Notes: a model not told the origin generated them from the sequence alone. Shown: positions 3,488 to 29,346, counted from the stretch's first letter. The stretch: 32,000 nucleotides of DNA from Candidatus Thermodesulfobacterium syntrophicum (GCA_029259515.1 JAPHEG010000006.1:42654-74653); one strand, 5' to 3'. Made by a program: numbers and translations.

Positions 3488-3516
3488 TTGACAGCATTTT
3501 AACTTTATGGTATTTA
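3488..3516 (+). promoter_or_regulatory. putative sigma70-type promoter for the riboswitch-metE transcript
   Basis: TTGACA (3488-3493), a 17-nt spacer, then TATTTA (3511-3516), ending about 8 nt upstream of the riboswitch P1 stem. Confidence 0.35.
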
Positions 3517-3523
3517 ATTAAAC

Positions 3524-3698
3524 GGGCTGAAGTTGTGGAAGAGGGGTGAAAGTCCCCCGCTGCCCCGCAGCCGTGACCAGGGACGAAAGCCGCTTGGGCT
3601 AAGCCAAAAGCTTAGCCGACAAGCCACTGGAGGAAATTTTCCCTCTGGGAAGGCGCGGCAAGTAGGATAATCCGGAAGCCGGAAAACCGCTTCAGCCT
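3524..3698 (+). promoter_or_regulatory. cobalamin (B12) riboswitch aptamer
   Basis: GC-rich island in an AT-rich spacer. It contains GGTGAAAGTCCCCCGCTGCCCCGCAGCCGTGA (the conserved GGUGAAA..CC..GCUGCCCC.GCA.C.GUGA core). It also contains GCCACTGG...GGGAAGGCG and a B12-box-like AATCCGGAAGCCGGAAAACC. The P1 stem pairs GGCTGAAG (3525-3532) with CTTCAGCC (3690-3697). It sits directly upstream of metE, the classic B12-repressed gene. Confidence 0.85.
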
Positions 3699-3821
3699 AA
3701 AAACCCGAGGGGGTGAAACAATGAAAAAATCCTTTTATTATTTGATCCTCTAAAACTTATTTTTATCTTCGCTAAATTTCTCATTTTAAAATTTTTAAAT
3801 TTATAGATGGAGGTGGTGTTT

Positions 3822-6101
3822 ATGCAAACAATGGCTTTTGGTTTCCCTAAACTTGGTAAAAATCGCGAATTCAAAAAACTGGTTGAAAACTTCTGGAAAG
3901 GAAATATCGAGGAAAAGGATTTTTTTAAAGAAATTGAAAAATTGAAAATAAAAAGAGCTGAAATATACAGCAAAAATGTGGATCTTTTTCCCAGTAATGA
4001 ATTCTCACTTTATGATTTTATGCTTGACACCTCAATAATGTTAGGAATTATTCCTGAAAGATTTAAACCCTATAAAGGACTCTCTACTTACTTTGAAATG
4101 GCGAAGGGGAAAGATGCTCTTGAATTAACAAAATGGTTCAACACCAATTATCACTATCTTGTGCCTGAAATAGAAAATGATGATTTTTCTCTTTTAAAAA
4201 ATTTTCCCTTAGATGATTTTATTTTTCATAAAAATTTAGGGTTTACTACTTTACCAAAAATTATTGGGCCATTTACCTTTTTAAAACTTTCTAAAATTGT
4301 GATCAAAGTAAATGGTAAGTTAAGATGCTGCAAAATAGAAGAAAAAGAAAAGTTTGAAAAATTTTTAGAAAAATTAATTCCATTATATCAAAAAATACTT
4401 CAAGAACTATTTGACTCCGGAACTAACTCGGTATTAATAGAAGAACCAGCTTTTGTTATGGAACTAAATGTCTGGGAATGGGAATTAATAAAAGAGATTT
4501 ATAAAAATTTAACAAATTTAGGGGAATTATGGATTTTAACCTATTACGATAGCGTATCTAATTATCACAATTTTGTTGAACTTCCTGTAAATGGTCTGGG
4601 ATTAGACTTAACTTCAAATAAAGAAAATCTGGAAAATTTGTTAAAATTAGGTTTCCCCGAAAATAAATATCTAATAGCTGGAATTATAAATGGAAGACAG
4701 GTATGGAAAGCAAACTTAAAAGAAAAATTAAATATAATAGAAAAACTTTCACAAGTTAGTGAGAAATTAATAATTTCCAATTCCTGTCCGCTTTATCATC
4801 TACCTATTTCACTTGAAGGTGAAGAGCACTTACCTTCCTCACTTTTGGGAAAACTTTCTTTTGCTGAAGAAAAACTTAAAGAACTAAAGATTCTTAAAGA
4901 TGCTTTTGAGGGTAAAGACGAAGCTCTAAAAGTTGTAAAGGAAAATGAGAAACTTTTTGAAAAGAAATTCGGAAAAAATGATGAAATACGAAGAAAAATT
5001 TTGAATCTTTCTGAAAAAGATTTTAAAAGGGATCTTCCTTACCAAGAGAGATTTAAAATACAACAAAAACGTCTCAATCTTCCCTTATTTCCAACTACAA
5101 CCATAGGATCCTTCCCGCAGACTGAAGATGTAAGAAGAGTGAGAACAAAATTTAATAAAGGAGAGATATCCGAAAAAGAATACAAATCTTTTATAAAGAA
5201 AAAAATAGAAGAGGCTATTAAACTTCAAGAAGAGATTGGACTTGATGTATTGGTTCACGGAGAGTTTGAAAGAACAGATATGGTTGAGTTTTTTGCACAA
5301 AAACTTGAAGGTATTGCTACAACAAAACAAGGATGGGTTCTTTCTTATGGAACAAGAGTTTATAGACCTCCAATAATTTACGGAGATGTGTATAGAATCT
5401 CTCCTATGACTTTGGAGGAAATAACATATGCACAAAGTCTTACATCAAAACCTGTAAAAGGAATGCTTACAGGTCCTGTAACTATTTTAAACTGGAGCTA
5501 TTATAGAGAGGATATACCTAAAAATGAGATAGCTTATCAAATAGCAATAGCTTTATTAGAAGAAATAAAAGATCTGGAGAGGGCAGGCATAAAAATCATA
5601 CAGATAGATGAACCTGCTTTCAGGGAAGGGGCACCAATAAAAAAGAGGGATTGGGAAAACTATTTTGAATGGGCAGTAAAAGCTTTTAAACTTTGTTCCA
5701 AGGCTAATCCTGAAACCCAGATTCATACTCATATGTGTTATTCTGAATTTAACGAAATAATAGAGTATATTTATCGGATGGATTTTGATGTAATTTCTAT
5801 AGAAGCATCAAGAAGCAAAGGAGAAATACTTGAAGCTTTTGAAAATTATAAAGATTGGGATCGACAGATAGGGATTGGAGTTTATGACATTCATTCTCCA
5901 ACAATCCCCACAAAGGAGGAAATAAAAACAGTAATAGAAAGGGCTTTAAAAGTTTTTCCCGAAAGACTTTTATGGATAAATCCGGACTGTGGTCTTAAGA
6001 CCAGGAGATGGGAAGAAGTAGTGCCAGCTCTTAAAAATATGGTGGAGGTTGCAAAAGAACTAAGAAAAAAATTGGCTAAAAATTATAGGGTTGACATTTA
6101 A
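3822..6101 (+). CDS. metE: cobalamin-independent methionine synthase (5-methyltetrahydropteroyltriglutamate--homocysteine S-methyltransferase)
   Basis: About 760 aa. N-terminus [24 protein letters not shown], with Zn-site motifs HMCYSEF and NPDCGLKTR. The ATG at 3822 lies 5 nt after the strong SD GGAGGTGG (3809-3816). The ORF track uses an upstream ATG at 3807. Confidence 0.95.
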
Positions 6102-7564: not shown

Positions 7565-8122
7565 TTGCAAATCACCGGAGGCTTTTTAAAAGGTAGAAAA
7601 CTTTATTCTCCACCTAAGGACCTAAATCTTATCCGTCCTCTAAGAACAAGGATAAGAAAAGCCCTTTTTGATATGTTGGGACAAGACCTTTCTAATTCAA
7701 AGGTCTTAGATCTCTTTGCAGGAACAGGAGCACTTGGTATAGAGGCTTTATCAAGGGGAGCAATTTTTGCAGTCTTTGTAGATAACAGTCCTGTAAGCAT
7801 ATCTATTATCAAAAAAAATCTTGGAAAATTTGATCTCCTTAATAAAGCGAAAGTTTTTAAATTAAATCTACCCAAGGGATTAAAAATTCTTTTAAAAAGT
7901 TTTCAAAACTTTTTTGATCTCGTATTCATCACTCCTCCCTATGAAAAAGGATTAGCTTTAAAAACATTTCAAAATCTTTCAAAAGATTTGTTACAAGAAA
8001 ATGCCACAATTATTGTGGAAGAGAGAACAGGAATAGAACTTCCTGAAAAAATAGGCAATTTTGAAGTTATAAAAAAGAGAAGCTATGGAGAAACTACTTT
8101 ACACATTTATAAGGTGTCTTAG
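7565..8122 (+). CDS. rsmD: 16S rRNA (guanine966-N2)-methyltransferase RsmD
   Basis: N-terminus (M)QITGGFLKGRKL, SAM-binding LDLFAGTGALGIEALSRGA, and the PPY motif (FITPPYEKG). TTG start. Confidence 0.8.
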   Translation: MQITGGFLKGRKLYSPPKDLNLIRPLRTRIRKALFDMLGQDLSNSKVLDLFAGTGALGIEALSRGAIFAVFVDNSPVSISIIKKNLGKFDLLNKAKVFKLNLPKGLKILLKSFQNFFDLVFITPPYEKGLALKTFQNLSKDLLQENATIIVEERTGIELPEKIGNFEVIKKRSYGETTLHIYKVS

Positions 8123-8816
8123 GTCCAGGAATTAAAGTTCCTCTAAAATCTAAAACAGCTCTTATACTATAACATACTTTTTCCCCGGGCTTTAACTCAT
8201 CAAAGTATTCCTCTTTCCCTCTTACCTTTATAAAGTTGATCTTTTCTTCAGATCTCTTTTCTATTTCATAAAAGGCTTCTCCTTCCAAAAAAAGCCCATA
8301 GATATCTTTTTCTGGTTTTTTCCATGTAATTAACACGGCATCTTCCCCAAAAAGTCTAAGTTGAAATGACTGAGGAAGACCTGGGGGATTGTGCCAAAAA
8401 ATAGTAATAGGCTCTGTAAAGGGTGTTTCTACCAAAAAGTCCTTAACAACTTTTACTCTGTAAGTGTATTGGTGACGATGCTTGAGATTGTAATCATTAT
8501 AAATAAACAGATTACCTGCTGAGTGAAGCTTGGGAGAAATCTTTATAACTTTTCTCTTTTTTTTAGCCTTAGGAATATCCAAAGGGACCTCGATTTTTTC
8601 AATAATCAACTTTTTAATTTTATTTAAAGAATAACCTCCCTGAGTTTTTATTGGAAGATAAACCAAAATTTCTGCTCCCTGAGTATTTAATTTAATTTCA
8701 AAAGAAAGTCCCTTAGGAATACTTTCTTCTATAGGAAATGGCTCTGTTTTTTTACCACAGGATAAAATTAAAAATCCAAGTCCAAAAAGGAATAAAAATT
8801 TTTTAATTTTTTTCAT
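8094..8816 (-). CDS. hypothetical lipoprotein with two FN3-like beta-sandwich repeats
   Basis: MKKIKKFLFLFGLGFLILSCGKK is a signal peptide plus lipobox (LSC). AGGAG lies 6 nt upstream of this ATG. The repeats end in YTYRVKVV and VLITWKKP...YSIRAV. The ORF-track start (8864) would overlap the fumarase gene. Confidence 0.6.
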   Translation of the reverse strand: MKKIKKFLFLFGLGFLILSCGKKTEPFPIEESIPKGLSFEIKLNTQGAEILVYLPIKTQGGYSLNKIKKLIIEKIEVPLDIPKAKKKRKVIKISPKLHSAGNLFIYNDYNLKHRHQYTYRVKVVKDFLVETPFTEPITIFWHNPPGLPQSFQLRLFGEDAVLITWKKPEKDIYGLFLEGEAFYEIEKRSEEKINFIKVRGKEEYFDELKPGEKVCYSIRAVLDFRGTLIPGPKTPYKCVK

Positions 8817-8824
8817 AAGCTCTC

Positions 8825-9664
8825 CTATAAAATCTTTATTCTGACTATTCTTGCAGAATGACACTGAATATTTACAGCAACTGGCAAACTTGCTATGTGG
8901 CAGGGACAGGTTTCAATGTGAACTCCCAAGCATGTTGTTTTTCCACCAAATCCAAGGGGTCCTATTCCTAAATTATTTATTTCTTTTAAAAGTTCTTCTT
9001 CGAGTCTTGCTATTTCAGGATTTGGATACTTTTTGCCCAGTGGTCTAAAAAGTGCTTTTTTGGAAATTAAAGCTGATTTTTCAAAATTACCTCCTATCCC
9101 AACTCCCAAAATAATAGGAGGACATGGATTAGGACCAGTTTTTTTAACTGTTTCTATTACAAATTCTTTAATCCCTTCTATCCCCTTTGAAGGAGAAAGC
9201 ATACAAAGTGCACTCATATTTTCACTTCCACATCCCTTAGGCATAAGATAAATTTCAAAAACATCTTCAGCAACTATCTCATAATGGATAATAGCTGGGG
9301 TATTGGTATTCGTATTTTTTCTGGTAAGAGGATCACAAACTGATGCTCTTAAAAAACCCTCTTTATAAGCAAGATACAATCCTTCATTAATAGCCTTTTC
9401 TAAGTTATTAACTCTTATACCTTCTCCTATCTTAACCCATACCACAGGAATTCCTGTATCCTGACAAAGAGGCAAGTTTTCTTTTTCGGCTATTTCAGCA
9501 TTTTTAAGAAGGATCTCTAAAACTGCTTTAGCTAAAAGATTTTCTTCTTTCTCTAAAGCTTTTTTTAAAGCTTCTTTTACTTCCTGAGAAAGATTTTTGC
9601 AGGCTTTAATATAACCCTCTTTAATCAAAAATACTATTTCTTCGTAAGGAATCTCCTTTTTCAT
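8825..9664 (-). CDS. Fe-S type hydro-lyase alpha subunit (class I fumarate hydratase / tartrate dehydratase alpha)
   Basis: 279 aa with LPLCQDTGIPVVWVKIG, MPKGCGSENMS and GIGG motifs, typical of the alpha subunit of two-subunit class I fumarases. Confidence 0.85.
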   Translation of the reverse strand: MKKEIPYEEIVFLIKEGYIKACKNLSQEVKEALKKALEKEENLLAKAVLEILLKNAEIAEKENLPLCQDTGIPVVWVKIGEGIRVNNLEKAINEGLYLAYKEGFLRASVCDPLTRKNTNTNTPAIIHYEIVAEDVFEIYLMPKGCGSENMSALCMLSPSKGIEGIKEFVIETVKKTGPNPCPPIILGVGIGGNFEKSALISKKALFRPLGKKYPNPEIARLEEELLKEINNLGIGPLGFGGKTTCLGVHIETCPCHIASLPVAVNIQCHSARIVRIKIL

Positions 9665-9669
9665 CTTCT

Positions 9670-10599
9670 TTAGCCCTCAATTTTATCAAAAATAAACAAA
9701 CTTTCTTCAATCCTTTCCCTTAAAACTAAGCTTTTTTCTATTTCGTTTTTTATGTCCTCTAAAGCAAAAGTCAGGTTATCAAAACTGCCACAATAAATTA
9801 AAAGATTGTGTCCACTTGCAAGACTTAAAATTATTCTCTCTTGAAGCTCCCAATCTTTTAACGCACCCATATTCAGATCATCAGTCAATATGGCTCCTTT
9901 ATAATTTAAATCCTTTCTTAAGATGTTTATAATTTTGGAAGAAAAGGTTGCTGGTTTGGGATCAATTCCATTTATACAAAGGTGAGTGGTCATAATAAAA
10001 TCTATTTTTTCTTCTTCAAAAAGGTATTTATAAGGATAAAGACTTTCTTCATCCAAAGTTTCTTTAAAAGGAAGTTCTTTATGGGGATCAGTTTTAACAT
10101 CTTTCAGTCCTGGAAAGTGTTTAAGGCAGGTAAAAACTCCTTCTTTTTTGTGCTCTGTTATAAAAATATAGGCAAGTTCTTTTACCAGTTTTGGGTCTTT
10201 CCCAAAGGTTCTTTCTTTTAGAAATTCTTCAGCGGTCTCATCAGCAAGATCAACACAGGGAGCAAGATTAAGATTGAGACCTTTTCTTTTTACAGAATGA
10301 GCTATACTTTCTGCCCATGTCCTAACTATTTTTTCTCCTTCTTTTAAATACTTTTTTGCAATCTCCGAAGGAGATGCATATTCTCCCTCAATTCTACAAA
10401 CCCTTCCACCTTCCTGATCAACTGCTAAAAATCTTAATTTAATTTTTCCTTTAAGAGAGGAAATGTAATAATTAAGGTCTTCTTCGAAATGCTCTTTAAA
10501 AAAGATAAAGTTTGAAAAATTTAATTCCTTATAAAGGGTTACATTTTTTTCTAAATTTTCAGGTTTAATCAAAAAAAGTTTGCCAATATATTTAAACAT
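9670..10599 (-). CDS. nagZ: glycoside hydrolase family 3 N-terminal-domain protein, beta-N-acetylhexosaminidase (NagZ-like)
   Basis: AVDQEGGRVCR, KHFPG and ILTDDLNMGAL motifs. 309 aa, single GH3 domain. Confidence 0.75.
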   Translation of the reverse strand: MFKYIGKLFLIKPENLEKNVTLYKELNFSNFIFFKEHFEEDLNYYISSLKGKIKLRFLAVDQEGGRVCRIEGEYASPSEIAKKYLKEGEKIVRTWAESIAHSVKRKGLNLNLAPCVDLADETAEEFLKERTFGKDPKLVKELAYIFITEHKKEGVFTCLKHFPGLKDVKTDPHKELPFKETLDEESLYPYKYLFEEEKIDFIMTTHLCINGIDPKPATFSSKIINILRKDLNYKGAILTDDLNMGALKDWELQERIILSLASGHNLLIYCGSFDNLTFALEDIKNEIEKSLVLRERIEESLFIFDKIEG

Positions 10600-11713
10600 T
10601 ATCTTTAAAGTATTCCGAAAAGATTTGTAAGGTTTTTTCTATATCCTCAAGATTTGTATATCTTCCTATGGAAAATCTTATCATCCCCTCGGATATTTCT
10701 TGAGGGAGCTTTAAGGCAAGGAGGGTTTGAGAACCCTTTCTGTCATGACACGCTGAACCAGTTGAGGCACATATTTGTGGAAGATCAGAAAGTATTTTAG
10801 CTCCACTTTTCCCAACAAAAGAAACTGCCAAAGTATTAGGCAGAGTTTTTTCTGGAATACCAAACCGATATAGCTTAGGATAAATTTCCTTAAGTCCCTG
10901 AAAAAGTTTCTCCCTTAAAAAAATTAATCTTTCTTCTTCTGAAGTTACATCTCTTTTAGCTATTTCCGAAGCCTTAGCAAAAGCTGCTATTAAACCGGTA
11001 AATTCAGTCCCTGCCCTTATTCCTTTTTCCTGACCTCCTCCTAAAAATATAGGTTCTATTTCTACACCTTTTCTGATATAAAGAGCCCCTATTCCTTTTG
11101 GAGTATACATTTTGTGCCCTGCCATACTTAAAAGATCACATCCAATTTCTTTAACATCTACCTCTATTTTACCCACTGCCTGACATGCATCAGTATGGAA
11201 ATAAATTTCTCTTTCTCTGCAAATCTCAGCTATTTCTTTAACAGGTTGAATAGTACCTATTTCGTTATTTGCCATCATTATAGAAACCAGTATTGTATTT
11301 AGCTTTAAACGCTTTTTTACCTCTTCTGGCTCCACATAACCGTTAGAATTTACAGGAACAAAGTCTACCTCAAATCCCATTTCTAAGAGTTTTACCGCTG
11401 GTTTTAAAACTGATGGATGCTCAAAGGCACTAACAAGTAAGTGTCCTTTCCTCTTAGAGATTGCTATCCCAAGTAAAGCAAGATGATTTGCCTCTGTTCC
11501 ACCTGAAGTAAAAATTATCTCTTCAGTTTCAGCATTGATTAACTCTGCTACCTTTTTGCGAAACTCTTCTAATCTTTCTCTAACAAATCTTCCAAATTTA
11601 TGAGCAGAACTTGGATTGGCAAAATATTCAGCTGAATAAAGTCTAAATTCCTCTATAACTTCTGGTAAAGAGGGGGTAGTTGCATTGTAATCTAAGTAAA
11701 TAACGTCTTTCAT
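10592..11713 (-). CDS. cysteine desulfurase (NifS/IscS class V aminotransferase family)
   Basis: YLDYNATTP N-terminus, PLP-lysine context SMAGHKMYTPKGIGALY, and catalytic-Cys loop STGSACH. Confidence 0.85.
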   Translation of the reverse strand: MKDVIYLDYNATTPSLPEVIEEFRLYSAEYFANPSSAHKFGRFVRERLEEFRKKVAELINAETEEIIFTSGGTEANHLALLGIAISKRKGHLLVSAFEHPSVLKPAVKLLEMGFEVDFVPVNSNGYVEPEEVKKRLKLNTILVSIMMANNEIGTIQPVKEIAEICREREIYFHTDACQAVGKIEVDVKEIGCDLLSMAGHKMYTPKGIGALYIRKGVEIEPIFLGGGQEKGIRAGTEFTGLIAAFAKASEIAKRDVTSEEERLIFLREKLFQGLKEIYPKLYRFGIPEKTLPNTLAVSFVGKSGAKILSDLPQICASTGSACHDRKGSQTLLALKLPQEISEGMIRFSIGRYTNLEDIEKTLQIFSEYFKDNV

Positions 11714-11729
11714 CTTTAAAATTATTAAA

Positions 11730-12401
11730 TCATTTTTCTGCTCTCACCACTACAAAAGCCCCAAAATTTTTAAATATCCTGTTTAACTTTCTGTCTAATT
11801 TAAATGCTAACTGAGTAAACGGGAAAAAGGAAGGAAAAAAAATAATGCCTCTTGTTTCTATATTTTTAAACCCTGCTTTTTGACAAAGATTTTTCAGTTC
11901 CTTTGGAGTATAAAATCTTGCATACCTATAAGCTGTCTCTACAAAAAGACTTTTAATCCTCTTAAACAAAAACCACAAACTTCTTCCATTCATTGTGCCA
12001 ATTAATACTTCTCCTCCGGGCTTTAAAACTCTGTAGATTTCTTTCATAACTTTTGTGGGTTCTTTTATAAACTCAAACATAGTAATACTTACAACCAGAT
12101 TAAAAACTTGATCTTTAAATGGTAAAAAATAGGCGTTACCATTTATAAAAAGAATTTTTGGAACTTTTTTTCTGGCAACCTTTAACATTTCTTTACTTGA
12201 ATCAAGACCAATCACTTCAAAACCCTTTTTATGAAGCTCTAAGGTATAATTTCCTGTTCCACAACCAAGATCTAAAGAAAACCCCTTTTTAATTTTTAAT
12301 AAGGATAGGATAAGTTCTTTTTCTGTTTTGTCTACATAACTTCCTGTCTTAGTTGTATACCAGCTATCATAAACCTTTGCAATTTTATCAAAATATTTCA
12401 T
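11730..12401 (-). CDS. class I SAM-dependent methyltransferase (Methyltransf_11-like)
   Basis: SAM-binding motif LDLGCGTGNYTLEL, plus VLKPGGEVLIG. The start ATG (12401-12399) overlaps the TGA (12400-12398) of the upstream giant ORF. Confidence 0.75.
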   Translation of the reverse strand: MKYFDKIAKVYDSWYTTKTGSYVDKTEKELILSLLKIKKGFSLDLGCGTGNYTLELHKKGFEVIGLDSSKEMLKVARKKVPKILFINGNAYFLPFKDQVFNLVVSITMFEFIKEPTKVMKEIYRVLKPGGEVLIGTMNGRSLWFLFKRIKSLFVETAYRYARFYTPKELKNLCQKAGFKNIETRGIIFFPSFFPFTQLAFKLDRKLNRIFKNFGAFVVVRAEK

Positions 12402-15400
12402 TTTGTAGTGAGTAATTTCTCTATTTCCTCTTCTGGCATAGGCTTTGCTAAATAAAATCCTTGCACATAATCACAACCCATAATATCCAAGTATTGAAGC
12501 TGTTCCTTTGTCTCTACCCCTTCTGCCAAGACTTTCATATCAAAAGAGTGCCCAATATCAATCATGTTTTTTATAAGAGCTATCTCTTTTCTGCTCTTTA
12601 ACATTTCTTTAATGAAAATTCTATCAATTTTAAGAATATCAAAAGGGATCTCCTTTAAATAACTCAAGGAAGAATATCCTATTCCAAAGTCATCAAGAGC
12701 AACTTTTATTCCTTGACTTTTGAAAAATTTTACCAGTTCTTTTATTTCCTCTACATTCTGAACAATAACTCTTTCAGTAATTTCTATTATCAGGTTTGAA
12801 AAAAACTGCTTAGACCTAAACCTCTTTGTTAGTCTTTTAGCGAAATCTAAATCAACAGAAGATTTACCAGAAATATTAAAAGAAATAGAAATTTTCCATT
12901 TTAAAATTTTTTCTTCAAGAGTTTTTATTCCCCATTCTTCAAAATCCCTCAAATAGGGACTATTTTCCAGATATTCTAAAAATTCTGAGGGCAAATGAAG
13001 TGTTCCGTCCTTCTCTTTTATTCTTACTAAAGCCTCAAGCCCTGCTATTTTTAGTGTATTTACATCAAAGTAGGGTTGATAATAAAAAACAAAAAGCTCT
13101 TCTTCAAAGGCTCTTTTTACAAGAGACTCACTTTTAAAATAAATATCTATCTTTTTACCTATTAAAGATGAATAAAATTCAACAGTTCCCTTTCCTTTTC
13201 TTTTTGCTTCGTTAAGAGCTAAATTGGCATTTTTCCAGAGCTCTTCAAAACTCTTTCCGTCTTGTGGAAAAATGGCAACTCCTGCATTAAAATCAATTTT
13301 TACAGTTTCGTTTTTCAGTTTCATAGGTTCTGAAATCAAATCTTTTAAAGTTTTTAAAATTTCAAAAATTTGCCTTTTATCTTTCAAATGGTAAAAGAAA
13401 ACAACAAAAGTATCAGAAAAAGCTCTGCTAACTAAGCCTTTATTTTTAAGGGGCTCAAGTCTTCTTGCTATTTCTTCTAAACAAAAATTTCCTCCCTCGT
13501 GTCCAAACATGGTATTTATGTAAGTAAAATCGCAAAGATCAACTATAATCAAAGCTCCTTCTTCAGAAATAAAGGGAAAAATATTTTTTACCCTTTTACG
13601 AAATCCTTCGTAGTTTAAAAGTTTTGTTAAAGGATCCATAAATCTTGCTTTATCAAGCATATCTTCAAACTCTAAAATCTTTGATACATCTTCAGCTATC
13701 AAGATATATCTAAAAAATTCTTCATCCAGTTTAATAGCATTAATCTTCATATCAAACCACAGAGTTCCCTTAGAGGTTTCAATACTTACTGGAATTCTCA
13801 AAGGTTTATCTAATCTTGCTTTAAAGAAATTTGCAAGATTTTCTCCTTTAAATTTAAATCCTAAAATCTCAATAGGTTTTCCTATAAGTTTATCTTGAGA
13901 AAAACCCAAGATTTTACTTCCTTTCTCATTTATGAACATAATAGTTCCTTCCTGATTTAAGCTAATTACCACTTCTTCAAGATTTCTTAAAGTTTCTGCA
14001 AATATCTTTTCTCTTCTAAAAAGTTCCAATTTCTTAATTCCAAATTCTAAATCTCTTTTTAATTCTTCCAGAATTTCTCTGTTTTCTTCTTCAAAAAATG
14101 AAGGCTCATCAGCATAAAGAGCTAAAACATATTTTATTTCATCTTCTATTTTTATAGGTATTGCAGCTACTGATCTCAAACCCAATTTTAAAGCTGGCTT
14201 TCTCCAAGGAGAAAATTTTGGGTCTGTTTCAGTATCAGCAATAATTTGAATTTTATCCTCTCTAAATGCTCTTCCTACAGGTCCTCTTCCTTCAGGAACA
14301 CTTTCTTCCATAGAAACTTTTATTTTTTTTAAATAATCTACTGCAACTCCAAATGAATAAACAGGTTTTATAAGTCTTGTCTCGTAGTCAGGAACTCCAA
14401 TCCAAATAAGTCTCATTCCATAAGTATCTGTTAAAATTTTACTTATTTTATTAAAAAATTCTTTTTCTGATTTGACTTCAACTAATTTCTGATTAATCTC
14501 TCTTAACATTTTAAGAAGTTTTTCTATCCTTACTTTCTTAGTAATATCAATTATCATCAACAAACCAGATGGTTTTCCTTCATAAAGAACTGTAATTGAA
14601 GAAACAAGTGCATAAACCTTTTTATCTCTTTTAGTCCTTAAAACCATATCTTTCCATGTCATTAAAAATCGTTCTCCCTTAGATCTTCTTTTTGCAATTT
14701 CTCTCACTCTCTTTTTGTCCTTTTCAAAATAAATAATATCTTCTGGCTTCAACTGAGAGAATTCTTCTTGGGTATATTCAAGAAGTTCACATATAAAAGG
14801 GTTGGCATAAATGTATTTTTCCCTATAAATAAGAATTCCTATAAAAGGATTTTTAAGTAATATTTCTGATAACTCCTTTATTTTAGAAATTTCAAAATAT
14901 TTTGCACTATTCATAACGACCTTTAAAAAACTTTGATAATTTTCAAAAGTTGTTTTCTTTTCTATAAAAATTTTTCTAAAACCCTTAAATAAAGTTTTCC
15001 CCCTAATGGTTATAAAGGGAGTCACCTTTTTCAAGGAAATTCTTAGTCTCTTAAGTGCTTCTTCTCCTATAACCTCTTTTTTTCTTATTTCTATAAGTCT
15101 CTTAGCTGAAGTAGGGCCTATTCCAGGAACTTTTATCAGTTCCCAGTAATCTGCTTTAGTAATTTCTACAGGAAAAAACTCTGGATGAGAAAGGGCCCAT
15201 CTTAGCTTAGGATCGATTTTGATATCAAGGTTTTCTTCCTTATCAAAAAGTTCCTCCAAGCTAAATCCATAAAATCTTAAAAGCCAGTCTGCCTGATAAA
15301 GCCTGTATTCTCTTAAATAAGGAGGTTTCTCTGAAGGTAAATCTTTATCTCTGTTTACAGGAATATAAGCGGAATAATAAACCCTCTTTACCAAGTCCTT

Positions 15401-16105
15401 TTTATATAAATTTTGAGAAAGTTTTAGGATTGTTTTATCTGTATCAGGAGTTACCCCTATAATAAGCTGTGTGGAAGTTGAACTTTCTTTTTCAAGTTCC
15501 TCTTTCAAAGACTTTATTTTAGCTAAGGTTGCAACAAGACTTTTTTGTTCTTTATCTGGAGCCAACCTTTTCAAACTCTCTTGAGTAGGCAACTCAATAT
15601 TACAACTAACTCTGTTTGCAAGTAAAATAGCTTTTTTTATAAGCTCTTCTGATGTTCCAGGAAGTATCTTTAAATGTATGTAAGCCTTAAATCCGTGTTT
15701 TCTTCTTAAAATTTCAACAGTTTTTATCATTTGCTCCATTGTATCATCAGAAGAAGGATAAATACCAGAGCTTAAGAACAGCCCCTTTATATGGCCTTTT
15801 CTATACAAATCTGTGGTAAGTTCAGCCAATTCTTTCGGAGTAAAAGATGTTCTTCTTATGTCATTTTTCCTTCTATGGTAACAATACTTACAATTATTAA
15901 TACAAAAATTAGTATAAAGAACTTTTAAGAGAGGAAAACATTTACCATTAGAGAGCCAAACATAATGGATACCACCCAATCCTCTGGTAAAATTATAAGT
16001 ATTTATTTTTATTCTCTTTCCACTTCCGGTGCAGACATTATCAAATTCTGCAGCCTGAGAAAGGATTTTAAGTTTGGTATAAGTGTCTTTTTTAATCATC
16101 TTCAA
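12398..16105 (-). CDS. multidomain fusion: DNA modification/repair-type radical SAM module + HhH, then PAS-GAF-PAS-degenerate GGDEF-EAL (c-di-GMP phosphodiesterase)
   Basis: Single uninterrupted 1235-codon ORF. The radical SAM motif FCINNCKYC is at aa 67-75 (nt 15881-15904). The N-terminus is KLKILSQAAEFDNVC. The HhH VPGIGPTSAKRLIEI is at nt 15092-15133. PAS-like regions span about aa 405-525 and 700-812, and a GAF-like region spans about aa 545-690. The GGDEF-like domain spans about aa 820-978, with SRAFSDTF where R.GGDEF is expected. The EAL domain spans about aa 990-1230 and has intact EALVR, DDFGIGYSSLSYL, EGVE and QG motifs. The likely start is ATG 16099 (the ORF track uses TTG 16105). 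Confidence 0.85.
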   Translation of the reverse strand: MKMIKKDTYTKLKILSQAAEFDNVCTGSGKRIKINTYNFTRGLGGIHYVWLSNGKCFPLLKVLYTNFCINNCKYCYHRRKNDIRRTSFTPKELAELTTDLYRKGHIKGLFLSSGIYPSSDDTMEQMIKTVEILRRKHGFKAYIHLKILPGTSEELIKKAILLANRVSCNIELPTQESLKRLAPDKEQKSLVATLAKIKSLKEELEKESSTSTQLIIGVTPDTDKTILKLSQNLYKKDLVKRVYYSAYIPVNRDKDLPSEKPPYLREYRLYQADWLLRFYGFSLEELFDKEENLDIKIDPKLRWALSHPEFFPVEITKADYWELIKVPGIGPTSAKRLIEIRKKEVIGEEALKRLRISLKKVTPFITIRGKTLFKGFRKIFIEKKTTFENYQSFLKVVMNSAKYFEISKIKELSEILLKNPFIGILIYREKYIYANPFICELLEYTQEEFSQLKPEDIIYFEKDKKRVREIAKRRSKGERFLMTWKDMVLRTKRDKKVYALVSSITVLYEGKPSGLLMIIDITKKVRIEKLLKMLREINQKLVEVKSEKEFFNKISKILTDTYGMRLIWIGVPDYETRLIKPVYSFGVAVDYLKKIKVSMEESVPEGRGPVGRAFREDKIQIIADTETDPKFSPWRKPALKLGLRSVAAIPIKIEDEIKYVLALYADEPSFFEEENREILEELKRDLEFGIKKLELFRREKIFAETLRNLEEVVISLNQEGTIMFINEKGSKILGFSQDKLIGKPIEILGFKFKGENLANFFKARLDKPLRIPVSIETSKGTLWFDMKINAIKLDEEFFRYILIAEDVSKILEFEDMLDKARFMDPLTKLLNYEGFRKRVKNIFPFISEEGALIIVDLCDFTYINTMFGHEGGNFCLEEIARRLEPLKNKGLVSRAFSDTFVVFFYHLKDKRQIFEILKTLKDLISEPMKLKNETVKIDFNAGVAIFPQDGKSFEELWKNANLALNEAKRKGKGTVEFYSSLIGKKIDIYFKSESLVKRAFEEELFVFYYQPYFDVNTLKIAGLEALVRIKEKDGTLHLPSEFLEYLENSPYLRDFEEWGIKTLEEKILKWKISISFNISGKSSVDLDFAKRLTKRFRSKQFFSNLIIEITERVIVQNVEEIKELVKFFKSQGIKVALDDFGIGYSSLSYLKEIPFDILKIDRIFIKEMLKSRKEIALIKNMIDIGHSFDMKVLAEGVETKEQLQYLDIMGCDYVQGFYLAKPMPEEEIEKLLTTK

Positions 16106-16110
16106 ATTTT

Positions 16111-16138
16111 AATTTAAAAAGATGGCTCTCTTTGTCAA
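16111..16138 (-). promoter_or_regulatory. putative promoter of the radical-SAM fusion gene string
   Basis: On the minus strand: TTGACA (16138-16133), a 16-nt spacer, then TAAATT (16116-16111). The -10 element ends only 6-12 nt from the candidate start codons, implying a very short or absent 5' UTR. Confidence 0.3.
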
Positions 16139-16235: not shown

Positions 16236-19200
16236 ATGCTATTTTATGTAGCTAAAGGCTGTCCTAATTGTCACGGTAAGATATCTGATGAAAGATTAGC
16301 TAAAGGCTTACCATGTGAAAATTGTTTATCAGAAAAAGATACATTTTCTCTTTCTGGAATTTCAGATATTTGTGAAATTCTATCTTCAAAAAATTCCTTA
16401 AAGGATTTGAAAACCTTTTGTGAGGTAGAAAAAAAGGTTGAAATTTTTAATAAAGTTTTTAAAGATATTTTAAATATACATCCTTCATCTTTGCAAATAA
16501 GCTGGGCAAAAAGATTTTTTTTAGGTGAGTCTTTTGCCATTGTTGCTCCCACTGGAACAGGAAAAACAACTTTTGGTCTAATAAGTTGTCTTCTTACTTC
16601 TAAAAAAGCTTTAATTATTGTTCCAACGAAAGTTTTGGTAAAGCAGGTAGAAGAAAAACTTAATAATTATTTAGCAAAGGGTAAAAAAGCTTCTTTTAAA
16701 AATAAATTGATTTTAGCTTACAAGGGTTCTAATAAAGAAAAAGAATTGTTAGAAAAGGGTAAATTTGATATCTTTATCTGCACATCTGCTTTTCTGCACA
16801 GGAATTTTGAATTGCTAAAAAGTATTGATTTTTCTCTTATATTTGTTGACGATGTTGATTCCTTTTTGAAAAACAGCAAAAATGTAGATAACTTATTTTT
16901 ACTTCTCGGTTTCTCAAAAAAAGAAATAGAGCTTGCTTTAAAAAGAAACAAAGAAGAAAAAGATTATGAAAATCTTCTGCGAATAAAAGAAAAACACAAA
17001 AAAAGAATAAAACAACTTATTATTTCCTCAGCAACCTTAAAACCAAAAACAAATAGGGTGCTTTTATTCCAAAATTTACTTGGTTTTGAAATAACGCGTT
17101 TTGTCTCAACTCTTAGAAAAGTTATAGATACTTATATTCCCATTAATCTAAACGATAAAAAAACTAAAAAAGAAGTATTTTACAAACTTCTTGAGGTAAC
17201 AGAAATACTTATAGGAAATTTAAAAGAAGGAGGGCTTCTCTTTATTGAAGAGGCTTTTGGAAAATCTTATGTAGAAATTGCTACAGATTACTTGAGAGAT
17301 AAAGGTTTTAAAGTTATTTCCTATTTAGAGGCAAATGAAGAAAAGCTTCTTTATGCTTTAAAAAATAAGGAAGTAGATGTAGCTATAGGGCTTTGTCACA
17401 TTGGGAATCCCTTAGTAAGAGGAATAGATATTCCTGAGGTCCTGAGATATGCCATATTTTTGGGTGTTCCAAAACACATTTTTCCACTTTCAAAAGGTAA
17501 AGAGGGATTTTCGCTTTCCCTTTCCCCTCAATTTTTATATAGTATCCTTATTTCTCTTATACCTCTTTTGGAAGAGGAAGAAAGAATAACTGCAATTTCT
17601 CATCTTAATTATCTTCGCAAGTATTTAACATTAAAAGAAGATAAGATTGTGCAATATGAAGGTCTCTATAAAAAAATTCTTTCTATAAAAGAATTTTTGG
17701 AATCTAAGCTTAATGACCCAGATTTTTTGGAAAAGCTTAAAAAAAGTGAAGAGGTTTTTTTAGAAGTTGATGAAGCGGGTAATTATTATGTTATAGTGGG
17801 AAATGCTTCTTCTTATTTGCAAGCCTCTGGAAGAGTTTCAAGACTAACAACTCGTGGACTCCTTCCCGGACTTTCTATCATTCTGGTTGACAATTTTAAA
17901 GCTCTAAACAGCCTAAAAAAGAGATTGCGCTTTTATTTGGGAGATGAAGCTGAATTTAAAGAAATAGACTTAAAAGATGCTTTGAATCTGAATATAGAAG
18001 TAAAAAATGAACGTCAAAAATTAAGTAAAGAAAAAATAGATTTTAAAAATTACCTTTTAATTGTTGAATCTCCTCACAAAGCCAAAACAATTGCCAACTT
18101 TTTTGGCAAACCTTCTGTTAGAAGAATCAAAAATGTTTGGGTTTATGAAATACCTATGGAAAATACTCTTTTATCTGTATGCGCTTCCTTGGGACATGTA
18201 TTTGATCTTTCAAGAAAAAAAGGAATTTTTGGAGTTCTTCAAGAAAACAGCCATTTTTATCCAGTTTTTAATACTATCAAAATTGACAAAAAAAACAAAG
18301 AGCAATTTGTAGATGATGAAGAAATAAAAAATAGGAACGAAATTTTTGACAAAGGAGAAATTATAGAAGTTTTAAGAACTCTTTCTTTTTGCGCAGATCA
18401 GACTTTTATAGCTTCTGATCCTGATGCAGAGGGAGAAAAAATTGCTTATGATCTTTATTCCAGTTTAAAACCCTTTCAAACTAACATAAAAAGGCTTGAA
18501 TTTCACGAAGTTACAGAAAGAGCCTTAAGAAAAGCTTTAGAAAATCCTCAGGAAATAAACATAACAAGAGTAAAAGCTCAGCTGGCACGAAGAGTTGCAG
18601 ACAGATGGGTAGGTTTTTCTCTATCTCAACAGCTGTGGAAAATTTTCAAAAAATCCCGTTTATCTGCCGGTAGAGTTCAAACCCCTGTTTTAGGTTGGAT
18701 TATAGAAAGGGCAAAACTTGCTAAACAATATAAGTATAAGATTTCGTTTAGTTTAAATGGACATAAATTTAGTATTGAAATTAACGAAGAAAGTCTTGCT
18801 AAAAAAATACTTGAAGAACTTCCAAAAAAATTAAAAATAACAGAAAAAGAAAGATTTGAAGATGAACTTTCTCCCCCACCTCCTTATACTACAGATACTA
18901 TTTTAGAGGATGCTTTTCATTTTTTTAGATTTTCCTCTTCTTACACAATGCAACTTCTACAGGAACTTTTTGAACTTGGACTTATTACTTATCACAGAAC
19001 AGACTCCACTAGAATTTCAGAAGTTGGACGTTATCAAGTAGCTAAGCCTTATATCACTCAAGTTTTAGGAGAAAATTTCTTTAACCCCAGGGAATGGAAA
19101 AGTGAAGGTGCCCATGAGGGTATAAGACCAACAAAACCTTGGGATCTTGCAGAAATCAAGTTAAGGATTGCACATGGTCTTTTAACTTTTAAAAATCCAA

Positions 19201-19763
19201 AAGATAGTTTTAAACTATATGATACTATCTTTAGAAGATTTATGGCAAGTCAAACAAGAAAAACCAAAGTATTAAAAGGTCTTTTTGAGTTTAAACTCCC
19301 TTCCTATTCCTGGGAAGAATCCTTAATTTTAAATATAATTCAGTCTGGATATGAATTTTTCTGGACAAAACCTCAAATTTTTAAAATGAACGACTCCATC
19401 TATCCAGAAAATATTCAATACAACAAAGTTCCGAAAGTCTTTCTTTACAATCAAGGAACTCTTATTCAGGAAATGAAAAAAAGAGGGCTTGGACGACCCT
19501 CAACTTATGCAGAAATAGTATCAACCTTACTACAAAGATACTATGTTTATGAACTTAAAAACGGAAGTCTGGTGCCTACATCTTTGGGAAAGGAAGTCTA
19601 TACATATTTAAAAAACAATTATGGCGAATATGTTTCTGAAGATTTCACAAGGGAGTTAGAAAAATTTATGGATGAAGTAGAGGAAGGTAAAAAGGAATGG
19701 GAAGAAATTTGCTTTAAACTTCTTCCTCTCTTAAACCTTTCAAACACTATAACCTCAAATTAA
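16236..19763 (+). CDS. rgy: reverse gyrase
   Basis: 1175 aa. N-terminal zinc finger CPNCHG...CENC. Helicase-like module with Walker A APTGTGKTT and FVDDVDS. Type IA topoisomerase module starting at LLIVESPHKAKTIANFFG (Toprim, about nt 18050). Active-site Tyr context LITYHRTDSTR. Confidence 0.95.
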   Translation: MLFYVAKGCPNCHGKISDERLAKGLPCENCLSEKDTFSLSGISDICEILSSKNSLKDLKTFCEVEKKVEIFNKVFKDILNIHPSSLQISWAKRFFLGESFAIVAPTGTGKTTFGLISCLLTSKKALIIVPTKVLVKQVEEKLNNYLAKGKKASFKNKLILAYKGSNKEKELLEKGKFDIFICTSAFLHRNFELLKSIDFSLIFVDDVDSFLKNSKNVDNLFLLLGFSKKEIELALKRNKEEKDYENLLRIKEKHKKRIKQLIISSATLKPKTNRVLLFQNLLGFEITRFVSTLRKVIDTYIPINLNDKKTKKEVFYKLLEVTEILIGNLKEGGLLFIEEAFGKSYVEIATDYLRDKGFKVISYLEANEEKLLYALKNKEVDVAIGLCHIGNPLVRGIDIPEVLRYAIFLGVPKHIFPLSKGKEGFSLSLSPQFLYSILISLIPLLEEEERITAISHLNYLRKYLTLKEDKIVQYEGLYKKILSIKEFLESKLNDPDFLEKLKKSEEVFLEVDEAGNYYVIVGNASSYLQASGRVSRLTTRGLLPGLSIILVDNFKALNSLKKRLRFYLGDEAEFKEIDLKDALNLNIEVKNERQKLSKEKIDFKNYLLIVESPHKAKTIANFFGKPSVRRIKNVWVYEIPMENTLLSVCASLGHVFDLSRKKGIFGVLQENSHFYPVFNTIKIDKKNKEQFVDDEEIKNRNEIFDKGEIIEVLRTLSFCADQTFIASDPDAEGEKIAYDLYSSLKPFQTNIKRLEFHEVTERALRKALENPQEINITRVKAQLARRVADRWVGFSLSQQLWKIFKKSRLSAGRVQTPVLGWIIERAKLAKQYKYKISFSLNGHKFSIEINEESLAKKILEELPKKLKITEKERFEDELSPPPPYTTDTILEDAFHFFRFSSSYTMQLLQELFELGLITYHRTDSTRISEVGRYQVAKPYITQVLGENFFNPREWKSEGAHEGIRPTKPWDLAEIKLRIAHGLLTFKNPKDSFKLYDTIFRRFMASQTRKTKVLKGLFEFKLPSYSWEESLILNIIQSGYEFFWTKPQIFKMNDSIYPENIQYNKVPKVFLYNQGTLIQEMKKRGLGRPSTYAEIVSTLLQRYYVYELKNGSLVPTSLGKEVYTYLKNNYGEYVSEDFTRELEKFMDEVEEGKKEWEEICFKLLPLLNLSNTITSN

Positions 19764-22682: not shown

Positions 22683-22800
22683 CCCGGGCACCGACCTACT
22701 CTCCCAGGGCGGTAACGCCCCAGTACCATCGGCCCTGGAGGGCTTAACGACCGTGTTCGAAATGGGAACGGGTGTTTCCCCTCCGGTATAGGCACCCGGG
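22683..22800 (-). rRNA. rrf: 5S ribosomal RNA
   Basis: The reverse complement reads CCCGGGTGCCTATACCGGAGGGGAAACACCCGTTCCCATTTCGAACACGGTCGTTAAGCCC...GCCGATGGTACTGGGG...GGGAGAGTAGGTCGGTGCCCGGG, with canonical 5S conserved blocks. Confidence 0.9.
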
Positions 22801-22817
22801 AAATCTAAATATTTTTA

Positions 22818-22860
22818 ACAAGTGAATAGGGTATCCTTTGGAACTTTTAAGCTGGTACTG
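22818..22860 (-). repeat. 3' arm of the 23S rRNA processing stem
   Basis: ACAAGTGAATAGGGTATCCTTTGG..TTTAAGCTGGT is the near-perfect inverted complement of 25891-25937. Confidence 0.6.
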
Positions 22861-22861
22861 C

Positions 22862-25890
<3,029 letters not shown>

Positions 25891-25937
25891 ACAGGAACCA
25901 GCTTAAAGATGCCAAAGGATACCCCTATTCACTTGTC
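25891..25937 (-). repeat. 5' arm of the 23S rRNA processing stem
   Basis: Inverted complement of 22818-22860, with one internal mismatch loop. Expected RNase III-type processing helix. Confidence 0.6.
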
Positions 25938-25944
25938 AAAGATC
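25933..25944 (-). promoter_or_regulatory. boxA-like antitermination motif upstream of 23S
   Basis: The minus strand reads GATCTTTGACAA, related to the boxA consensus (T/G)(G/T)CTCTTTAACAA / GTTCTTTGAAAA. Confidence 0.4.
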
Positions 25945-25969
25945 TATTTTGCCACCACTTGTCAAAAAG

Positions 25970-26045
25970 TGGTGGAGGTGAACGGATTCGAACCGTCGAC
26001 CTCCGGCTTGCAAAGCCGGCGCTCTCCCAACTGAGCTACACCCCC
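25970..26045 (-). tRNA. tRNA-Ala (anticodon TGC), CCA encoded
   Basis: The reverse complement is GGGGGTGTAGCTCAGTTGGGAGAGCGCCGGCTTTGCAAGCCGGAGGTCGACGGTTCGAATCCGTTCACCTCCACCA. The G3:U70 identity pair is present and the anticodon loop is TTTGCAA. Confidence 0.95.
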
Positions 26046-26056
26046 ACACTAAAAAA

Positions 26057-26132
<76 letters not shown>

Positions 26133-26160
26133 ATCGGTTCAAATCCGTTCACCTTCAATA

Positions 26161-26173
26161 TTTTCAAAGAACA
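26161..26173 (-). promoter_or_regulatory. boxA-like antitermination motif in the 16S-tRNA spacer
   Basis: The minus strand reads TGTTCTTTGAAAA, a very close match to the Gram-positive-type rrn boxA (TGTTCTTTGAAAA). Confidence 0.5.
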
Positions 26174-26181
26174 AAATTTAT

Positions 26182-26197
26182 ATTGAATAGCGCCCGC
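26182..26197 (-). repeat. 3' arm of the 16S rRNA processing stem
   Basis: ATTGAATAGCGCCCGC is the inverted complement (one mismatch) of GCGGACGCTATTCAAT at 27882-27897. Confidence 0.55.
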
Positions 26198-26218
26198 TGG
26201 GACTCCTTCTTTCTCCTT

Positions 26219-27803
<1,585 letters not shown>

Positions 27804-27881
27804 AACTTGTCCCGGCTCAACCCAGCTACTTTAAAATGTAGCTGGACCGGCCGCAAGTTTCAAAACTTGTAGAGCCCCAAT

Positions 27882-28092: not shown

Positions 28093-29346
28093 CTAAAAAG
28101 TTATACAGTTTTTCCCTTTATTCTTTGATTCATAGAGTTTGCGATCTGAAGAAATTAACATCTCCTTTAAAGAATCTTTAAGCTCTAACTCCACTCCCAT
28201 AGAAATAGTATATCTTATATCTAACCCTTCTGAATTTTTAGAAATCCTCAACATATTTTCCTCTATATATTTTCTAAATCTTTCCAAATATTCTAACAGC
28301 CTTTCTTTATCCTCATAGCCTATGAGTAATGTAAACTCTTCTCCTCCTGTGCGAGCAATTAAATCATTTTTTCTTCTAAAAAAACTTCTTAAATGCTTAG
28401 CAAAGTCCTTTAAAACCTCATCTCCTATGTCGTGCCCATAACTATCATTAATCCTTTTAAAATCATCTATATCTGTAACTACACAAGCTAAATTAGATTT
28501 GCTTCTCTGAGCATTTTTCCACAATTTTGGAGCTTCTTCAAAGAAATATCTTCTATTCCTAAGTCCTGTAAGTGGATCTCTAAAAGCGTAAAATTCCAAT
28601 TCCTGTATAATATTTAACATTTCTATGGTGTTGTTTATTCTCACCATAAATTCTTCTTTACTAAAAGGTTTGCTAATAAAATCATTTGCACCTGCCTTTA
28701 AAAGAATAGGTATCATGTTAGTTTTAATCATTCCTGATACAACAACAATTCCTACTTCCTCTTTCCTAAATTTCTCTCTGATAGAATATATAAGCTCTAC
28801 AGTATCTTCTTCTGGCAAAAAATAGTCCAAAACTATTAACTTTACATCTGTATTTTTTTCTAAAATCTCTAAAGCTTCTGACCCTTTTCCTGCTTCAAAT
28901 ACCTGAAAAAGCATATTCTCTAAAATTTTTTTCATCAAAGTTCTGTCAGTTTTAGAATCGTCTATTACAAGAACTTTACTTTTTCTGTTTCTTAAGGCCC
29001 TTGAAATAGTATAAATTATATGTTCTGCTATATTTGGTGTTCCTTTGACAAGATAATCAATTACATTTTTCTCAAGTATCTTTTCTCTAATTCTTTCATC
29101 ATAAGAGGCGGTTAAAACAATTGTTGGGACTTTGTTTTCTATTAAAAAATCTATAGCTTCTCCGTGTTCAGCATCTGGAAGATGATAATCACAAATAGCT
29201 AATAAAAATGAATTTCTACTCAATAAACTTTTTAATTCTTCAAAACTCTTTGCTTGTTCTGTGGATAATCTTATCTTTTTTGAGATTAACTTAGAAAGAA
29301 CTTTTAAAACTATTTTATCATCATCAACTAAAAGTATCTTAGACAT
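28093..29346 (-). CDS. PleD-like response regulator diguanylate cyclase (REC-REC-GGDEF)
   Basis: Two receiver domains (KILLVDDD...CDYHLPD and KVLVIDDS...VLDYFLPE). The GGDEF domain has the active-site motif ARTGGEEF and an RxxD I-site (RKND) five residues upstream. Confidence 0.85.
   Translation of the reverse strand: MSKILLVDDDKIVLKVLSKLISKKIRLSTEQAKSFEELKSLLSRNSFLLAICDYHLPDAEHGEAIDFLIENKVPTIVLTASYDERIREKILEKNVIDYLVKGTPNIAEHIIYTISRALRNRKSKVLVIDDSKTDRTLMKKILENMLFQVFEAGKGSEALEILEKNTDVKLIVLDYFLPEEDTVELIYSIREKFRKEEVGIVVVSGMIKTNMIPILLKAGANDFISKPFSKEEFMVRINNTIEMLNIIQELEFYAFRDPLTGLRNRRYFFEEAPKLWKNAQRSKSNLACVVTDIDDFKRINDSYGHDIGDEVLKDFAKHLRSFFRRKNDLIARTGGEEFTLLIGYEDKERLLEYLERFRKYIEENMLRISKNSEGLDIRYTISMGVELELKDSLKEMLISSDRKLYESKNKGKNCITF

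Follow-up and report, generated by a model that had tools for sequence, protein, structure and literature searches.

An apparently recent fusion of a TIGR03916 radical SAM gene with a PAS-GAF-PAS-GGDEF*-EAL gene in Candidatus Thermodesulfobacterium syntrophicum

We analysed a 32,000-nt stretch of the genome of Candidatus Thermodesulfobacterium syntrophicum (GCA_029259515.1, JAPHEG010000006.1:42654-74653; hereafter the window), in which one open reading frame (ORF) joins a radical S-adenosylmethionine (SAM) module of the family TIGR03916 to a PAS-GAF-PAS-GGDEF*-EAL protein of cyclic di-GMP (c-di-GMP) signalling, the asterisk denoting a degenerate GGDEF domain. Judged by comparison with related loci, the fusion is real and very recent, occurs in this species only and arose by the merging of two co-oriented neighbours. 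We consider it likely that this recent, species-specific event was accidental and near-neutral and that both activities have been retained. A first-pass annotation of the window had described the ORF as uninterrupted, and positions 12398-16105 of the minus strand are indeed open throughout. The 1233-aa form starting at ATG 16099 is identical to MDF2954113.1 (P0075), which the database annotates as 'GGDEF domain' and nothing more. The features of the fused ORF are the following.

12398-16105, minus strand: fused ORF, 1235 codons from TTG 16105 or 1233 from ATG 16099
14984-16078, minus strand: TIGR03916 'putative DNA modification/repair radical SAM' module, residues 10-374
15881-15904, minus strand: CxxxCxxC [4Fe-4S]/SAM motif, C68-C72-C75 (CINNCKYC), read from the sequence
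15077-15169, minus strand: helix-hairpin-helix region, residues 313-343, including VPGIGP at 326-331 (Pfam HHH_3 and motif)
14925-14930, minus strand: T6 run marking the site of a 5-nt deletion relative to the junction of the L003 type, AGTTTTCTTTTTTAAAGG
14912-14924, minus strand: retained initiation region of the EAL gene, with AAAGG at 14920-14924, a 5-nt spacer and ATG at 14912-14914 (M398)
14570-14839, minus strand: first PAS domain, approximately residues 423-512 (weak Pfam scores; TIGR00229 matches two stretches)
14048-14473, minus strand: GAF domain (GAF_2), residues 545-686 (Pfam)
13682-13993, minus strand: second PAS domain (PAS_9/PAS), residues 705-808 (Pfam, TIGR00229)
13190-13642, minus strand: degenerate GGDEF domain, residues 822-972 (Pfam; motif FSDTF, without the RxxD I-site)
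12440-13117, minus strand: EAL c-di-GMP phosphodiesterase domain, residues 997-1222 (Pfam; signature residues intact)

The junction between the modules lies at 14912-14930, where the first-pass annotation had placed it. Alignment of the window (...CAAAGTTTTTTAAAGGTCGTTATG) with the related locus L003 (...CAAAGTTTTCTTTTTTAAAGGTCGTTATG) revealed 5 nt fewer in the window, within a T-rich tract. Relative to the L003 type, this deletion removes the TAA stop of the radical SAM gene and puts the two frames in register, so that the fused protein gains a new linker of three codons, K395-V396-V397. The AAAGG of the retained initiation region is complementary to the 3' tail of this genome's 16S rRNA (...CACCTCCTTTCT). 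A scan for internal promoters and terminators returned none at the junction, and sites found elsewhere were no commoner than in shuffled sequence.

The closest homologues obtained with the full-length query are 837- and 840-aa EAL proteins from Thermodesulfobacterium metagenome-assembled genomes (MAGs), 91% and 86% identical, which align to the C-terminal two thirds of the query only. Their contigs share the neighbourhood of the window, with a divergent reverse gyrase gene and, downstream, genes for a UbiE-like methyltransferase, a NifS-like desulfurase, GH3 and fumarase, while the N-terminal 393 residues of the fused protein are 95-96% identical to the stand-alone radical SAM proteins of the sister MAGs. 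We count six independent unfused loci, namely L001/L002 (one allele), L003 (=L005), L014, L015, L021 and the L016/L017 type, in which two separate genes encode the radical SAM protein (393-398 aa, or 378 aa in the frameshifted case) and the EAL protein (837-840 aa); P0079-P0086 are further members of the cluster, called separately. Among the window and its relatives, five states of the junction could be distinguished.

L003 (=L005): radical SAM gene of 393 aa ending in TAA, 8-nt spacer, EAL ATG in another frame
L014 and L021 (a JGI metagenome contig): TAA changed to GAA, radical SAM gene extended by 5 codons (398 aa) and overlapping the EAL start by 8 nt
L015: as L014, with an additional 1-nt deletion in an A-run, leaving a truncated radical SAM frame of 378 aa
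L001/L002: radical SAM and EAL genes parted by a PBP-like (Phosphonate-bd) gene of 231 aa
window and L013: fused

The 1-nt deletion of L015 (positions 203-1339; MAG GCA_021163335.1) affects an A7 run and represents a true frameshift or else a fault of the assembly; it illustrates that homopolymer tracts close to the junction are prone to insertions and deletions. In a sliding-window comparison, the region 14650-15150 of the window (minus strand) appeared as a mosaic, in which an identity of about 98% to L001 and L014 over the gene bodies contrasts with approximately 500 nt around the junction that are nearer to L003 (96% versus 86%). Since the likeness to L003 is centred on the junction while the gene bodies resemble L001 and L014, the comparison suggests that homologous recombination also moved the junction allele between lineages.

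The organism is the sulfate-reducing partner of the alkane-oxidising Ca. Alkanophaga in 70 °C enrichment cultures from the Guaymas Basin, sequenced by Illumina only (PMC10322722). Assemblies at NCBI and ENA and per-run Logan assemblies together comprise 12 contigs on which the identical 1233-aa product is called; the underlying reads are Illumina 2x250 and 2x150, and L013 is base-identical to the window at the junction. This recurrence, together with the identity of L013, makes a one-off assembly error unlikely. A stop or frameshift near 14.9 kb that splits the ORF into two genes, an outcome for which the first-pass annotation had allowed, is thus present in the relatives but not in this genome, in which the fused allele is reproducibly assembled. 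A scan of JGI metagenomes for the fused or the L003-type junction gave 0 matches, and with a relaxed pattern a single contig was obtained, L021, whose allele is the overlapping, unfused one.

That the two genes are neighbours at all is no old feature. Orthologues of the EAL protein without a radical SAM gene in their flanks occur in L004 (67% identity), L006 from Thermodesulfatator (59%), L007 (45%) and L009 (35%); these proteins of about 1066 aa carry an N-terminal PBP-like domain without signal peptide or transmembrane segment, and an exhaustive search of representatives identified this form of approximately 1050 aa as the common one. We note that the ancestral Phosphonate-bd N-terminal domain of L004 (8001-11201; also of L006, L007 and L009) corresponds to a cytoplasmic sensor of the PBP type, and that in L001 (7309-8004) it has become a gene of its own, encoding 231 aa and with a 4-nt ATGA overlap. 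In L003, L014, L015, L021 and the window the PBP-like domain, roughly 230 aa, is deleted. Conversely, L016 (radical SAM protein approximately 75% identical) and L020 from T. hydrogeniphilum (67%) display the divergent reverse gyrase gene, then the radical SAM, methyltransferase and NifS-like genes, and no EAL gene. Since distant relatives hold one gene without the other, the radical SAM/EAL adjacency is young and restricted to one small clade, and gene order points to a conserved unit formed by reverse gyrase, divergently paired with the radical SAM-methyltransferase-NifS row, in which the EAL gene is the variable element.

From these arrangements, the most economical history appears to comprise four steps. 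A PBP-PAS-GAF-PAS-GGDEF*-EAL gene would first have taken up its place between the radical SAM and methyltransferase genes; its PBP-like domain would then have been split off, as in L001, and subsequently deleted, as in L003, L014, L015, L021 and the window; finally, in Ca. T. syntrophicum alone, the 5-nt deletion would have fused the remainder to the radical SAM gene. Living relatives thereby present a stepwise natural series of gain and loss of an N-terminal module, including fission of the sensor domain, its deletion, gene overlap and loss of a stop codon.

The identity of the N-terminal half as a radical SAM protein of TIGR03916, proposed in the first-pass annotation, was borne out by profile search. 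The NCBIfam model TIGR03916 scores 425.2 bits against a curated cutoff of 343.5 (residues 10-374, model positions 3-383 of 415), Pfam Radical_SAM matches residues 63-228, and Pfam HHH_3 remains sub-threshold on residues 313-343 (22 versus 27 bits). The motifs cited at that stage, C68/C72/C75 (CINNCKYC) and VPGIGP at 326, are present, and the three cysteines as well as the PGIG residues are invariant in an alignment of 68 family sequences. The window protein keeps 95 of the 97 positions conserved at 95% or more among 119 homologues, both departures being conservative (A to V and I to L). By score and motifs, the N-terminal part is hence a bona fide member of TIGR03916. An AlphaFold2 model of residues 3-397 reached a pLDDT of 88.4 and a pTM of 0.86, with low confidence restricted to the loop 31-39 and the tail 381-395 (pLDDT below 50); on this model, the C-terminal tail can act as a flexible linker. 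Foldseek searches with the model gave generic radical SAM cores as best matches (HydE, BioB, LipA, PFL-AE; TM-scores of about 0.4-0.5).

In length, the window protein (1233/1235 aa) lies far outside the approximately 380-430 aa of stand-alone members; 119 of the 120 nearest radical SAM homologues are 370-440 aa long, and the sister-MAG proteins likewise stand alone. A linked DUF4130/uracil-DNA glycosylase (UDG) gene, the contextual hallmark of the family, is lacking from the window and its Thermodesulfobacterium relatives: tblastn with eight DUF4130(-UDG) C-terminal regions found no such partner in the window, as the first-pass annotation had said, nor in L001-L020. The function of TIGR03916 is described by contextual and AlphaFold-3-based predictions only. 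As a separate observation, loci of the Thermodesulfobacterium sp. TA1 type (L018/L019, 5001-6218) carry a second, more divergent TIGR03916 lineage, with a radical SAM protein approximately 60% identical, beside a 2-thiouracil-desulfurase-like/DUF1722 gene, a rhodanese gene and another radical SAM gene, without DUF4130/UDG; the neighbours are again sulfur-trafficking genes.

For the C-terminal half, Pfam scanning and motif reading yielded the two PAS domains, the GAF domain, the degenerate GGDEF domain and the intact EAL domain that had been claimed. EAL (PF00563) scores 211 bits against a cutoff of 31.3, and all of its signatures are present (EAL1024, FNIS1076, EITE1108, DDFG1138, KID1159, EGVE1195 and QGF1215), residues which we take to serve in catalysis and metal binding, as established for EAL domains. 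The GGDEF domain reaches 79.7 bits (Pfam). In an alignment with the PleD-like cyclase encoded in the window, its RAFSDTF falls opposite RTGGEEF, and the RxxD I-site is absent. Judged by these motifs, the FSDTF domain cannot make c-di-GMP and would at most bind a nucleotide regulator. The equivalogs DibA, PRK10060, GepA, DosP and Tlr1612 all remain below their cutoffs (195-256 bits versus 782-1600), and profile scores thus place the C-terminal part among the ordinary composite GGDEF*-EAL phosphodiesterases, outside any named equivalog. The cyclase used for alignment (28093-29346, minus strand) is of the PleD/CbrR-like REC-REC-GGDEF type with intact GGEEF and RxxD I-site; from its motifs, it is likely a source of c-di-GMP, located approximately 12 kb from the phosphodiesterase.

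No second protein with this architecture was encountered, in line with the first-pass annotation, according to which no characterised protein is known to link the family with c-di-GMP turnover. A full-length search of 5.8 billion clusters gave no combination of radical SAM and EAL, returning only proteins of the EAL type or radical SAM-DUF4130(-UDG) fusions. The best 150 matches of a phmmer search (1198 residues versus 1.84 billion representatives) cover either approximately residues 370-1198 or approximately 5-375, never both, although it should be noted that a search of representatives misses fusions in clusters with an unfused representative, the window's own protein being one such case. 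Among the 120 nearest radical SAM homologues, almost all of them stand-alone proteins of approximately 380-430 aa, none carries PAS, GGDEF or EAL. At the codon level, purifying selection on both halves is shown by pairwise ratios of nonsynonymous to synonymous rates versus L001 and L003, which are 0.11-0.27 in the radical SAM half and 0.26-0.29 in the EAL half. The window alone carries 9 synonymous versus 5 nonsynonymous codon changes in the former and 22 versus 19 in the latter; with about four times more nonsynonymous than synonymous sites, these counts indicate continued constraint.

We therefore favour, as probable, a recent and near-neutral fusion in a single species. In this model, transcription would proceed from the best sigma-70-like site (16138-16111), and ribosomes starting at ATG 16099 would synthesise the 1233-aa polypeptide, in which the radical SAM tail, approximately residues 381-397, would form a flexible linker to the first PAS domain. 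From AAAGG-N5-ATG (M398), internal initiation would yield the ancestral 838-aa phosphodiesterase, which is probably still made. Most likely, both modules go on doing what they did before the fusion, the radical SAM module a predicted [4Fe-4S]/SAM chemistry on a nucleic-acid substrate and the EAL domain the hydrolysis of c-di-GMP under PAS/GAF control, as predicted from sequence, with the degenerate GGDEF domain acting at most as a regulatory nucleotide-binding domain. The N-terminus of the PAS region ancestrally bore another domain, the PBP-like one, which makes an N-terminal appendage at this place structurally plausible. No evolved allosteric coupling between the modules is expected.

Several points weigh against this model. 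Both the 143-kDa fusion and the 97-kDa internal-start product are predicted from sequence. All 12 contigs probably derive from enrichment cultures of one sediment sample and thus document reproducibility, not population independence. On expression of the gene, the supplements of the source paper offer nothing, as GGDEF, EAL, radical SAM and reverse gyrase do not occur in them. The selection tests have no means of singling out the time since the deletion, and neutrality is deduced from how young and how unique the fusion is.

A mildly deleterious fusion, or a first step of decay, we regard as unlikely. Here, tethering to an 840-aa dimerising protein would impair a radical SAM enzyme of which no stand-alone form is left, and the allele would persist by drift or hitch-hiking in a bottlenecked culture. 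The junction is mutationally unstable, having undergone the A-run frameshift of L015, the TAA-to-GAA stop loss of L014/L021, the 5-nt deletion and the recombination that left a mosaic, and the cultures stem from one inoculum, all of which would suit such a course. However, the branch of the window displays no nonsynonymous excess (the 9 versus 5 changes given above), the invariant family residues are all retained, and steric interference would be avoidable by way of the flexible tail.

Less probable still is an adaptive fusion, in which the radical SAM module replaced a lost PBP-like sensor, so that Fe-S redox state, SAM, DNA-damage input or a DNA tether gates c-di-GMP hydrolysis, or c-di-GMP and the PAS/GAF domains gate radical SAM chemistry. 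If this were true, c-di-GMP hydrolysis in a syntrophic hyperthermophilic sulfate reducer would respond to Fe-S redox, SAM or DNA binding, and the replacement of a sensor domain in a second-messenger enzyme would have been caught at its birth. The ancestral N-terminal sensor of approximately 230 aa did sit at exactly the position of the radical SAM module (L004, L006, L007, L009) and has become a gene of its own in L001, while L003, L014, L015 and the window have lost it; in addition, the fused allele is the form assembled on the 12 contigs found to carry it, and both halves are intact. On the other hand, the fusion occurs in one species only, sister lineages that are also without the PBP-like domain keep separate genes, the linker consists of three accidental codons from what used to be an intergenic spacer, the internal start site persists, no co-variation or conservation backs an interface, and the 1.84 billion representatives contain no other such fusion. 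The evolved coupling between radical SAM chemistry and c-di-GMP that the first-pass annotation had put forward is consequently unsupported, given the separate genes of the relatives, the 5-nt deletion, the retained start with its ribosome-binding site and the limitation of the adjacency to a small clade. A sequencing or assembly artefact, or a minority variant in an organism that really has two genes, is very improbable: the source is a MAG, the deletion lies within a low-complexity T-rich tract and the fused allele is missing from the JGI metagenomes scanned, but the identical product recurs on 12 contigs of separate NCBI, ENA and per-run Logan assemblies, Illumina reads are not typically prone to 5-nt deletions, and L013 is base-identical at the junction.

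Compared with known systems, the near-neutral fusion favoured here combines two familiar proteins. Like the stand-alone TIGR03916 proteins of the sister MAGs, the N-terminal module passes the family cutoff, carries CxxxCxxC and the helix-hairpin-helix and lies divergent from reverse gyrase, while in contrast to them it runs without a stop into 838 further residues; a typical TIGR03916 context also has an adjacent DUF4130/UDG gene, which the window and its Thermodesulfobacterium relatives are without. The family is C-terminally extended in TIGR03916-DUF4130(-UDG) fusions as well (P0008, P0022, P0026, P0039; 40-46% identity over the radical SAM part). There, however, the partner is the usual, widespread one with which a physical complex is predicted, whereas in the window it is an unrelated signalling protein seen once. 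TIGR03916 was named 'SplB-like' by Aravind et al. 2013 (PMC3765255). Spore photoproduct lyase (SplB) shares the radical SAM core, a presumed DNA substrate and, in other bacteria, an SOS/repair context, but the chains of this enzyme in the PDB gave no sequence match to the radical SAM module, and it is absent from the top 50 Foldseek fold matches.

Residues 398-1235 are orthologous, in the same domain order, to the PBP-like-PAS-GAF-PAS-GGDEF*-EAL proteins of approximately 1050-1070 aa in Thermodesulfobacteriaceae (P0003/P0207, L004, L006, L007, L009), with 45-67% identity to those of L004, L006 and L007 and 35% to that of L009; these have a cytoplasmic PBP-like sensor at the N-terminus, where the window has the radical SAM enzyme. 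A degenerate GGDEF domain before a complete EAL domain, with PAS or GAF upstream, is shared with composite GGDEF*-EAL phosphodiesterases of the PdeA/CC3396 and DibA / PRK10060 types. In PdeA/CC3396 of Caulobacter, the inactive degenerate GGDEF domain binds GTP and activates the EAL domain. The matches to DibA, PRK10060 and DosP are partial and far below cutoff (e.g. 256 versus 980 bits). The architecture is therefore new, but a singleton that arose from a trivial mutation, and, since the fusion is confined to one species, it should not be taken to tie this radical SAM family functionally to c-di-GMP signalling.

The fused ORF is embedded in the following neighbourhood.

16111-16138, minus strand: sigma-70-like promoter match TTGACA-16-TAAATT, the best consensus match, in the 130-bp intergenic region between the fused ORF and the divergent reverse gyrase gene
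16236-19763, plus strand: reverse gyrase, divergent, in a pairing with the radical SAM gene that is kept throughout Thermodesulfobacterium
11730-12401, minus strand: UbiE-like SAM methyltransferase, with 4 nt (ATGA) shared between its start and the stop of the fused ORF
10592-11713, minus strand: NifS/IscS-type cysteine desulfurase, which comes next in the conserved row of co-oriented genes

Only 5 nt separate the end of the promoter-like site from the TTG, and 11 nt separate it from the ATG; from this spacing the mRNA leader may be very short or absent. The head-to-head pair of reverse gyrase and TIGR03916 genes (radical SAM part at 14921-16105, minus strand) is found in the window, L001, L003, L016 and L020 (T. 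hydrogeniphilum), and in genomes without the EAL gene the UbiE-like methyltransferase gene directly follows the radical SAM gene. This arrangement, upstream of methyltransferase and cysteine desulfurase, offers a modest lead to the function of the family in thermophiles. The NifS-like protein scores approximately 420 bits on the PADLOC models DndA and SspA, with no further Dnd or Ssp genes nearby, and these matches probably reflect generic IscS/NifS similarity. A reading of the fused protein itself as part of a defence system was rejected, PADLOC having assigned it to 0 families.

Further away, a 256-aa ORF downstream of the fumarase alpha subunit gene (8094-8864, minus strand) has no match in Pfam, NCBIfam or PADLOC; its positional counterparts in L001, L003, L004, L016 and L020 measure 237-242 aa and likewise lack a Pfam match. 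On the other side, the window contains a complete 16S-tRNA-tRNA-23S-5S operon (22683-27803, minus strand) with approximately 58-61% GC versus approximately 31% for the genome, a signature of thermophiles, and the plus-strand ORFs listed at 23015-27872 are spurious. At the edge of L004 (1-253), beside a PBP1A gene and on the side of the window's rRNA operon, lies a LAGLIDADG homing-endonuclease ORF, possibly encoded by a 23S rRNA intron; the 23S gene of the window (3031 nt) has no insertion like this putative intron. Finally, a cobalamin riboswitch (3513-3708, plus strand; 66 bits) is located directly 5' of the gene for MetE, the cobalamin-independent methionine synthase (3807-6101, plus strand), which is the classic arrangement.

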